From NCBI RefSeq assembly GCF_003334385.1, contig NZ_QOWN01000147.1: a stretch of 747 bases of DNA, one strand, 5' to 3'. The position numbers were made by a program, and so were the translations under genes. This DNA is from Escherichia coli. GTDB taxonomy: Bacteria > Pseudomonadota > Gammaproteobacteria > Enterobacterales > Enterobacteriaceae. Below are positions 1 to 747 of this stretch, in pieces. Within the stretch, counting starts at the first letter, position 1, and every line of letters begins with the position of its first letter. The notes below the pieces were generated by a model. That model saw nothing but the letters and a program-made list of their open reading frames with translations, did no database searches and had not been told where the DNA came from.

Positions 1-19
1 GTGCCAATCCGGTGTGTGG
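1..19 (+). repeat. 19-bp shufflon-type repeat (putative Rci/sfx recombination site, left boundary of invertible segment)
   Basis: Seen directly: bases 1-19 GTGCCAATCCGGTGTGTGG are the exact reverse complement of 729-747 (19/19); identity stops at base 20 vs 728. From memory the R64 shufflon repeat consensus is GTGCCAATCCGGTNNNTGG (7-bp spacer GTGCCAA plus 12-bp right arm), which this fits. If so, the non-conserved left arm of the full site lies upstream of base 1, outside the window. Confidence 0.75.
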
Positions 20-352
20 CGAACGATTGGTGCACCTGACGGAAGTTACAGCAATCTGGGTTCTCACCGGGGAACATTTAACGGGAGAAATAACGGCAGA
101 GGAACTTTGTTTGTGTACGCTTCCGGTGGAAATGGTGCCGGTGGCGGTGATTGCGCCAACACATCAAATCTTCAGGGCTATGTGAACGGCGCTTTCATTG
201 GTATGAATGCCAGCAATAACCCCTCCTACGGAAAGACAGCATTTATTTCATTTGCCGTGCCAGTGGGAGCGTCATATCAAATCATCTCCAGACCAACACA
301 AAATTACGCCTGTGGTAACGGTGTTTTCTCTGTGTATGCCTATCAGATGTGA
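1..352 (+). CDS. pilV: 5'-partial CDS: alternative C-terminal variable cassette of a PilV-like minor pilin/adhesin (Gly/Asn/Ser/Tyr-rich), stop TGA at 350-352
   Basis: Frame is open from the window edge (codon phase starts at base 2: TGC CAA TCC GGT GTG TGG = CQSGVW) to the TGA at 350-352. The GTG at 14 listed in the ORF track lies inside the repeat with no Shine-Dalgarno upstream, so the true start is presumably upstream of the window. About 20 Gly in 112 residues and 2 Cys (GDCANT, NYACGNG). The gene symbol is inferred from the shufflon context, not from recognised protein sequence. Confidence 0.65.
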   Translation, partial: CQSGVWRTIGAPDGSYSNLGSHRGTFNGRNNGRGTLFVYASGGNGAGGGDCANTSNLQGYVNGAFIGMNASNNPSYGKTAFISFAVPVGASYQIISRPTQNYACGNGVFSVYAYQM

Positions 353-356
353 GTCC

Positions 357-747
357 CTAGCTGGCTTTAACAATGTAGTTGAATGCAATATTTTTGGGAC
401 GCATTTCTGTGGTACTCCCCTGTGCCCAGTATGGCATACCACTATGATGCCCTTTCAGCCATCCGCCACGTTCGTGATAGACGCCTGATTGATCGGCCTG
501 ATAACTCAGGAGTTGTCTGTTCCGATCACCATCAAGTCCCTTCCCGTTATCCCAGCCACGGATAAAAACACCGCGCAGATCGGGCAATTTACAGCTAGGA
601 TAAGCACGGGCAAGCTGAGGATACCGGGAACAGGAAAACGACTGGCCGTTCATCAACAGATAGCCTTGTGGAGGAGTGGCAGATGGCCACGGGATAGGGC
701 TTCCCACCGGGTAGGATTCAAAGCCAACCCACACACCGGATTGGCAC
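357..747 (-). CDS. pilV: 5'-partial CDS: alternative C-terminal variable cassette of a PilV-like adhesin with a phage tail-collar-like motif, stop TAG at 357-359 (read on - strand)
   Basis: On the - strand the frame is open from the window edge (phase starts at base 746: TGC CAA TCC GGT GTG TGG = CQSGVW) to the TAG at 359-357. Contains ...LMNGQSFSCSRYPQLARAYPSCKLPDLRGVFIRGWDNGKGLDGDRNRQLLSYQADQ..., which resembles the conserved core of phage tail-fibre collar domains (NGQ...YP.L...LPDLRG.F.RGWD) as I recall them. No RBS or start of its own. Gene symbol inferred from context. Confidence 0.65.
   Translation of the reverse strand, partial: CQSGVWVGFESYPVGSPIPWPSATPPQGYLLMNGQSFSCSRYPQLARAYPSCKLPDLRGVFIRGWDNGKGLDGDRNRQLLSYQADQSGVYHERGGWLKGHHSGMPYWAQGSTTEMRPKNIAFNYIVKAS
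729..747 (-). repeat. 19-bp shufflon-type repeat, inverted copy (putative Rci/sfx recombination site, right boundary)
   Basis: Seen directly: 729-747 CCACACACCGGATTGGCAC is the perfect reverse complement of 1-19. On the - strand it encodes the same C-Q-S-G-V-W peptide in the same phase as the left copy. Confidence 0.75.

Follow-up and report, generated by a model that had tools for sequence, protein, structure and literature searches.

The window analysed here, a 747-nucleotide (nt) stretch of DNA from Escherichia coli (contig NZ_QOWN01000147.1), comes from the shufflon of a conjugative plasmid, where alternative C-terminal ends of the pilus adhesin PilV are encoded. A perfect 19-nt inverted repeat, GTGCCAATCCGGTGTGTGG, caps both of its ends (1–19 and 729–747) and encloses two convergent open reading frames (ORFs), 14–352 on the plus strand and 357–734 on the minus strand (125 amino acids (aa)). 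The minus-strand frame remains open through the terminal repeat, up to base 746. Since both frames read through the repeat, both products begin with the hexapeptide CQSGVW coded by it.

The window was 100% identical to a part of the E. coli plasmid pJKHS006_1 (NZ_CP147067.1; IncK2/Z, conjugative, MOBP/MPF_I, 98 kb) and matched 415 plasmid records, nearly all of them conjugative plasmids of Escherichia or Shigella; the feature annotations under the match differed from record to record. In pJKHS006_1, the segment is flanked by a site-specific integrase gene and by pilV, where a type IVb pilus operon ends; this operon has genes for the major pilin, prepilin peptidase, PilN, PilO2, PilP and an ATPase. 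The integrase gene was found about 60 nt from the outermost sfx recombination site, and its product gave weak tyrosine-recombinase matches (XerC/XerA models, E 2e-9), while no resolvase-type gene was annotated near the shufflon. The pilV coding sequence (5357–6718 of the extracted pJKHS006_1 locus L001, minus strand) continues in frame through the right sfx site into the minus-strand cassette. The full PilV protein (453 aa) begins with a weak N-terminal methylation motif, followed by a Shufflon_N domain (34–328) and a Collar domain (339–386). The original prediction, which took the minus-strand cassette for a shufflon cassette of a conjugative-pilus adhesin, is borne out by the sfx repeats, by the fusion to pilV in frame and by the tyrosine recombinase encoded nearby.

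The sfx pattern GTGCCAATCCGGTNTNTGG occurs at four sites of alternating orientation in the pJKHS006_1 locus (0.06 expected), which gives two segments, and is also present seven times at the corresponding place in the IncI1 plasmid R64 (about 0.1 expected). The two plasmids have in common the sfx core (GTGCCAATCCGGT...TGG), the pil operon and the Shufflon_N constant region of pilV, as well as a tyrosine-recombinase gene between the shufflon and the tra genes and a segment with two convergent cassettes. They differ in the number of sfx sites, namely seven in R64 (PilV adhesins A, A', B, B', C, C' and D') versus four in the studied locus. In a second IncK2/Z plasmid, 20170103-1, the segment was 99.9% identical but was located away from pilV, which carries another end there. 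Because the segment adjoins pilV in one plasmid and is apart from it in the other, it evidently moves. Based on the sfx repeats at both ends, the four-site locus and the likeness to R64, the window represents a single, complete invertible segment, belonging to the shufflon of an IncK2/Z-type (I-complex) conjugative plasmid.

Collar homology of the minus-strand cassette

A peptide that had been noticed on the minus strand for its likeness to the phage tail collar domain (GYLLMNGQ...SYQADQ) was reproduced exactly, all 59 residues, by translation of 489–665, inside the 125-aa ORF. Its assignment to the collar domain was upheld by sequence profiles as well as by the predicted fold. The Pfam model Collar (PF07484) was matched over its whole length (1–57/57) with an E-value of 1e-13 (51.4 bits). 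In a phmmer search against PDB sequences, the tip of the T4 fibre protein gp37 (2XGF) was found with E 8.9e-21 and the 'short tail fiber' chain of 9CUY with E 1e-13, and T4 gp12 gave a weak match (E 0.01–0.05). Among the PHROG families, 22 were matched (best E 3.3e-42), 19 of which are labelled as tail; the top two were 'tail collar fiber protein' (3e-42) and 'tail fiber protein' (2e-41). The NCBIfam scan of the minus-strand cassette matched no family.

The AlphaFold2 (AF2) monomer model of the cassette had predicted local distance difference test (pLDDT) values of 82–95 for residues 11–60 and of 82 for the last strand. When this model was compared with PDB structures by Foldseek, 2xgf_A (gp37) was the first match (E 5e-6, probability 1.00), followed by gp12 entries. 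The template modelling (TM) scores were low (0.36–0.43), because the middle of the model is unreliable. The search against BFVD gave 31 matches at E ≤ 1e-3, and almost all of the named ones were tail-fibre or tail-collar proteins.

The stretch between YPQL and LPDLRG had seemed shortened relative to typical collar domains, and this proved to be real: 48 residues cover the 57 positions of the Pfam model (about 9 positions fewer), and in comparison with T4 gp12, which has a longer loop before LPDMRG, 8 residues are missing in two 4-residue gaps. Since gp37, the 9CUY chain and the P1/P2-type fibre ends are equal in length to the cassette and align without gaps, the short stretch is a trait of the subfamily. 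The Gly/Asp-rich stretch followed by SYQ-D, which had been counted as part of the collar motif, lies outside the Pfam model; it does fall within a block conserved in phage fibre ends, GWDxGRGxDxGRxLLSxQ.

Two blocks of the cassette were matched by gp37. Residues 10–71 align ungapped to residues 27–88 of the gp37 chain (about 55% identity), and residues 111–127 align to its C-terminus, TENTVKNIAFNYIVR. Thus, the cassette has in common with gp37 an ungapped block, the C-terminal NIAFNYIV strand and the best fold match. The C-terminal strand, EMRPKNIAFNYIVKAS, also matches ENRPKNIAVMYIIK of the 9CUY chain. Between the two blocks, the cassette has 39 residues (72–110), whereas gp37 has about 135, which form its needle and its receptor-binding head. 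This arrangement in two blocks recurs with the 9CUY chain, with gp12 and in an alignment with nine homologues. In this alignment, the N-half reads PVGxPxPWPS...YPxLAxxYP...LPDLRGxFIRGWDxGRGxDxGRxLLSxQ and is followed by a variable insert and the conserved end ExRPxNIAFNYIVxA, with 43–45 positions invariant across the PilV and phage cassettes.

The variable insert occupies the position where phage fibres bear their distal receptor-binding part. With the Q of LLSxQ and the E of ExRP as limits, its length was 28–30 aa in 11 PilV-type cassettes versus 42–73 aa in 54 phage-type sequences; it has 30 aa in the present cassette. All PilV-type inserts contain the motif GHHxGM. Both Cys39 and Cys52 occurred in eight of the 11 PilV-type cassettes, whereas the pair was absent from all 54 phage-type sequences. 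Given that a pilin acquires its fold in the periplasm, and that the plasmid has a gene for a DsbC-family protein, a disulfide between these two residues is plausible, judging from the sequence. In total, three features of the PilV type are absent from the phage versions: the short GHHxGM insert, the Cys pair and K118/K127. The coordinates of these parts are given in Table 1.

Table 1. Features of the shufflon segment (window positions)
Feature	Position	Strand	Description
Left sfx recombination site, GTGCCAATCCGGTGTGTGG	1–19	+	19-nt inverted repeat; codes CQSGVW, start of the plus-strand cassette
Convergent PilV cassette, not a collar domain	2–352	+	116 codons and stop (350–352)
PilV C-terminal cassette with tail-collar module	357–746	–	129 codons and stop (357–359)
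Conserved C-terminal strand, EMRPKNIAFNYIVKAS, returning to the collar	360–407	–	Invariant in the alignment; pLDDT 82
Variable insert, ADQSGVYHERGGWLKGHHSGMPYWAQGSTT	408–497	–	Residues 84–113; includes the GHHxGM motif of PilV-type cassettes
Conserved collar N-half, SYPVGSPIPWPS...LPDLRGVFIRGWDNGKGLDGDRNRQLLSYQ	498–719	–	Cassette residues 10–83; common to phage fibre ends; includes columns invariant in two alignments
Pfam Collar (PF07484) stretch	561–704	–	Residues 11–58 of the 125-aa ORF
Cys39 (630–632) and Cys52 (591–593), flanking a short helix	591–632	–	Possible disulfide particular to enterobacterial PilV-type cassettes
Right sfx recombination site	729–747	–	Codes CQSGVW, with which the minus-strand cassette begins; joins the pilV constant region in frame

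Relatives on plasmids and in phage tail-fibre loci

A search of 5.8 billion proteins gave 589 matches to the cassette. The closest group (95–100% identity) consisted of proteins named 'Phage Tail Collar Domain', 'phage tail protein', 'tail fiber protein' and 'PilV, partial'. The second group (63–70% identity) came from Salmonella, Citrobacter and Arsenophonus. The gene of its main member (P0008) lies in a shufflon with a Shufflon_N pilV, cassettes and a Phage_integrase gene, followed by tra genes. In two of the proteins found (P0021 and P0023), Shufflon_N and Collar are combined in a single chain. It is worth noting that Salmonella plasmid shufflons with a related collar cassette contain a Hexapep-repeat ORF (L006, 6106–6612, and L007, 4145–4693, both on the minus strand); this ORF, with its repeats of a left-handed beta-helix type, is a second unusual kind of candidate PilV end.

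The large remaining group (38–50% identity, 92% coverage) was made up of 'phage tail proteins' of 140–220 aa. One of them, P0091 (BLASTP E 2e-36 with the cassette), is encoded in a P1-like element with DarA, LydB, holin and P1 tail fibre R genes. At this locus, a serine invertase gene (Resolvase + HTH_7) was found beside six to nine Collar cassettes in both orientations, together with a Caudo_TAP chaperone gene and a long fibre gene (Phage_fiber_2 + Collar). We take this layout to be the multiple-inversion arrangement of P1 Cin and p15B Min. Every cassette in the P1-like loci L002–L004 aligns with the PilV cassette at 38–45% identity, starting at residue 10 or 11 and reaching its end (10–130). 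In locus L002 (4900–10462), eight free Collar cassettes and an expressed fibre end were observed.

In addition, a tblastn search against phage genomes gave 521 records, with a coverage of 92–96% in the best ones. The matches fell at the C-terminal ends of tail fibres of P2, HK106 and phages of Aeromonas, Vibrio, Klebsiella, Erwinia and Yersinia, usually directly upstream of a tail fibre assembly gene. Across the end modules of P2, P1/p15B-like, lambdoid and other tail fibres, the alignments covered 92–96% of the cassette at 40–50% identity. Over 88 conserved columns, the identity between PilV-type and phage-type sequences was 61% on average and 78% at most.

The phage inversion loci and the PilV locus resemble each other in the build of the cassette (collar N-half, variable insert and the E-RP-NIAFNYIV end) and in the joint, since the constant N-terminal part gives way to the alternative ends immediately before the collar. 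They differ in most of the remaining machinery. The constant part is a fibre shaft in the phage loci and a pilin in PilV; the inversion enzyme is a serine invertase (Resolvase + HTH_7) in the former and a tyrosine recombinase in the latter. The repeats comprise 220–290 nt of conserved coding DNA in the phage loci and only 19 nt in the shufflon. The L002 repeats, which span 220–290 nt of the collar-coding N-half, lie within collar-coding DNA, so that the recombination substrate overlaps with the code for the conserved protein block. The insert has 42–73 aa in the phage cassettes and 30 aa, about half as many or fewer, in the present one, and the Cys pair is missing from the phage cassettes. A chaperone gene follows the phage cassettes, but none was found on the whole 98-kb plasmid by tblastn with the chaperone of the P1-like locus L002 (best E 1.5).

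The original prediction also hinted at module exchange between phage tail-fibre variation systems and pilus shufflons. The homology of the whole cassette to the Cin/Min-type cassettes supports a module shared between the two, as far as can be judged from sequence comparison. However, at the DNA level, the blastn link to the genes of P1-like phage-plasmids was limited to stretches of 60–220 nt with 68–82% identity. Since the likeness is confined to such short conserved stretches, the exchange is old, and a recent transfer of DNA from phages was rejected.

A collar cassette was expected in R64 from the database name 'Shufflon protein B', but no match to the minus-strand cassette was found in the R64 shufflon by tblastn at E ≤ 0.01. 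A fusion of PilV with a phage tail collar domain has been described in Pectobacterium brasiliense (CP084655.1, UCP91044.1), in a pilus cluster with programmed inversions (Milman et al. 2023, Nucleic Acids Res, PMC9881135). The authors proposed that a domain of phage tails had taken on a new use there, in the recipient specificity of conjugation, and stated that the shufflon proteins described earlier are not homologous in the collar part (PMC9881135). Our negative result for R64 agrees with this statement. By its description, rather than by sequence comparison, the Pectobacterium protein has the same domain pair, Shufflon_N and Collar, as the one studied here, but it belongs to a chromosomal record of another organism, whereas the present cassette is found on plasmids.

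Other features of the segment and its plasmid

The plus-strand cassette encodes 116 aa, is Gly/Asn-rich and ends with ...VFSVYAYQM. It showed 67% identity to the C-terminal end that is at present joined to pilV in R64, and no match was obtained in Pfam, PHROG or NCBIfam. Consequently, only the minus-strand cassette of the segment is phage-like.

The two cassettes are arranged tail to tail, with the plus-strand stop TGA and the minus-strand stop TAG (CTA on the plus strand) separated by a 4-nt gap, and nearly all bases between the sfx sites of the segment are coding. A 24-nt direct repeat of 75% identity near the segment ends (58–81, GGGTTCTCACCGGGGAACATTTAA, and 698–721, GGCTTCCCACCGGGTAGGATTCAA) probably arose by chance. 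Other short repeats in the window (D1–D3, I2 and I3) are imperfect two-copy matches and were likewise treated as chance.

The second segment of the pJKHS006_1 shufflon (L001, 4506–4992, 487 nt) lies 8 nt from the window segment. It contains two convergent 77-aa ORFs, of which at least the plus-strand one begins with the sfx-coded CQSGLW; neither matched the collar cassette in tblastn.

Two further observations concern other parts of NZ_CP147067.1. A phosphoethanolamine transferase gene (L009, 15355–16899, minus strand) is located beside an IS1 transposase gene and could be an mcr-type colistin-resistance gene. Region 10073–16782 of L010 contains four tandem IS91-family transposase genes, each after an identical small hypothetical gene, which suggests tandem amplification of the IS91 unit.

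Proposed role of the collar-bearing PilV end

Based on the data described, we consider it very probable that the window is an IncK2/Z shufflon segment whose minus-strand cassette is a tail-fibre end module serving as the recipient-selecting tip of PilV. The following mechanism can be suggested. A tyrosine recombinase of the Rci kind, encoded beside the shufflon, recombines the inverted sfx sites at the segment ends, and the orientation and position of the segment decide which of the convergent cassettes joins the constant part of pilV via CQSGVW. PilV, a prepilin with a Shufflon_N domain, is the adhesin at the tip of the thin mating pilus of type IVb. The minus-strand cassette is homologous to the end modules of phage fibres (T4 gp37, P2 H and the S-type cassettes of P1/p15B) and consists of a collar N-half, a short variable insert and a C-terminal strand that closes the collar. 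With this cassette joined to pilV, a miniature phage-fibre end is most likely presented at the tip of the pilus. The 30-residue insert and the surrounding collar surface would then bind a structure on the recipient surface and in this way set the specificity of mating in liquid. The receptor is most likely the core of the lipopolysaccharide (LPS) or an outer-membrane protein, as for related phage fibre ends.

In R64, liquid mating requires the thin pilus, whose tip adhesin is PilV; the alternative C-terminal segments of PilV bind different LPS structures and set the recipient specificity (PMC12282955, PMC10516633). From this biology, together with that of phage fibres, we infer by analogy that the collar module itself recognises the receptor. 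We also infer that it folds without a phage chaperone. In its organisation, PilV resembles the type IVb minor pilins CofB and TcpB, which sit at the pilus tip and carry beta-rich domains C-terminal to a pilin domain. CofB forms homotrimers (PMC6048534), in keeping with the threefold symmetry of phage collar domains, and a trimeric PilV tip is thus an attractive model.

Several points weigh against the proposed role in recipient selection. Residues 60–120 of the cassette were modelled with low confidence, and AF2 modelling of three cassette copies (joined by 25-residue Gly/Ser linkers, 14-row alignment) gave a pLDDT of 33.6 and a predicted TM score of 0.22, values too low to bear on the oligomeric state in either direction. 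In the published structure of T4 gp37, the collar is reportedly structural, and the receptor is bound by the distal head. As this head is missing from the cassette, the collar might be a scaffold only. No chaperone was found on the plasmid, although phage fibres of this class normally adjoin one. Finally, R64 has no collar cassette, so its receptor data are not directly transferable; it is also the only shufflon with characterised receptors, and its biology is therefore carried over by analogy.

The most serious alternative is a collar that serves PilV merely as a cap for structure or oligomerisation, for example, one that trimerises the tip, with recognition left to the constant region, another pilus component or a partner docked on the collar. 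In favour of this reading, the cassette lacks the approximately 135 residues that bear the receptor-binding head in gp37, as is visible from the gap in the alignment. In addition, type IVb minor pilins are able to assemble into trimeric tip complexes to which a secreted adaptor is anchored, as in the docking of CofJ on the CofB trimer (PMC6048534). It should also be noted that the insert was unchanged between the cassette and its variant on the IncI-gamma/K1 plasmid NZ_CP027453.1 (13 synonymous and no non-synonymous differences), so that it is conserved and not diversifying between these two variants. Nevertheless, we regard a purely structural cap as unlikely. The cassette is one of several ends selected by inversion, an arrangement that is sensible only if the ends differ in function; the ends of R64 determine recipient specificity; and the insert is the most variable part among the PilV-type cassettes of different plasmid lineages.

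Another possibility is that the cassette is a decaying fragment of a prophage tail fibre, trapped in the shufflon and without a role in conjugation. The unfused copies are annotated as 'phage tail protein' or 'tail fiber protein' or are left unannotated, and no chaperone gene accompanies them, as might be expected of such a fragment. However, the intact frame joins pilV exactly at the sfx site, and the PilV-type cassettes have features of their own unlike those of the phage versions (GHHxGM, the Cys pair and K118/K127). The cassette DNA was present in at least 414 plasmid records at ≥80% coverage and is kept in several plasmid lineages and genera, including Salmonella and Arsenophonus. In NZ_CP027453.1, where the cassette is fused to pilV, the DNA was 87.1% identical, while only six of the 129 residues differed. 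The Nei–Gojobori estimates for this pair were dS (synonymous) 0.76 and dN (non-synonymous) 0.027, and with the resulting dN/dS of 0.036, the cassette is, to judge from the substitution pattern, under strong purifying selection. The low dN/dS, the wide retention and the movement of the segment exclude a decaying relic for practical purposes. As for a chance or low-complexity resemblance to the collar, for which nothing but the Gly/Pro-rich composition could be adduced, it is ruled out by E-values of 1e-13 to 3e-42 in four independent libraries (Pfam, PDB sequences and PHROG among them), by the invariant positions and by the fold match.

A more detailed picture can also be drawn, which we offer as a tentative and rather doubtful one. 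The thin pilus would end in a true phage tail-fibre tip in miniature, in which three PilV subunits would trimerise through the collar, as CofB and all phage collars do. The 30-residue insert with its conserved GHHxGM motif would be a minimal, possibly metal-stabilised, receptor-binding apex. By acquiring the Cys pair and losing the Tfa chaperone, a phage module that folds in the cytoplasm would have adapted to folding in the periplasm. In that case, plasmids and phages would share one interchangeable receptor-binding module across two unrelated DNA-inversion machineries, and phage receptor-binding inserts could be grafted into PilV to retarget conjugation.

The collar domain is already recorded in the Pfam annotation and in the NCBI/UniRef names of these proteins, and the Pectobacterium publication also precedes our analysis; the finding thus refines existing knowledge rather than being a discovery. 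The phage-like domain is unmentioned in reviews discussing PilV (PMC12282955, PMC10516633), the study of IncI2 PilV receptors by Allard et al. 2023 contains no mention of tail, collar or phage, and full-text literature searches for shufflons with a collar or phage tail gave nothing further of relevance. What is added here is that collar-type PilV ends are common on clinically important I-complex plasmids of E. coli and Shigella. Furthermore, the homology, as traced in the alignments, spans the whole fibre-end module and reaches the cassettes of serine-invertase inversion systems. The PilV versions are a distinct short-insert type with conserved features of their own and without a chaperone.

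An evolutionary link between the two kinds of systems is thereby confirmed, and it offers testable leads on receptor and structure, although a specialist would not be greatly surprised by it. Its importance lies in the fact that PilV ends decide which bacteria are reached by I-complex plasmids in liquid, and that plasmids of the IncK/B/O/Z/I types rank among the main carriers of resistance genes in E. coli and Shigella. The phage-fibre module provides a structural template (gp37, gp12) for the adhesin, and points to candidate receptors (LPS core, porins) already mapped for related phage fibres. It also suggests that phages and plasmids compete for, and select on, identical surface structures of the recipient. 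One protein module is the variable unit in two mechanistically unrelated inversion systems, one based on a tyrosine recombinase and the other on a serine recombinase.

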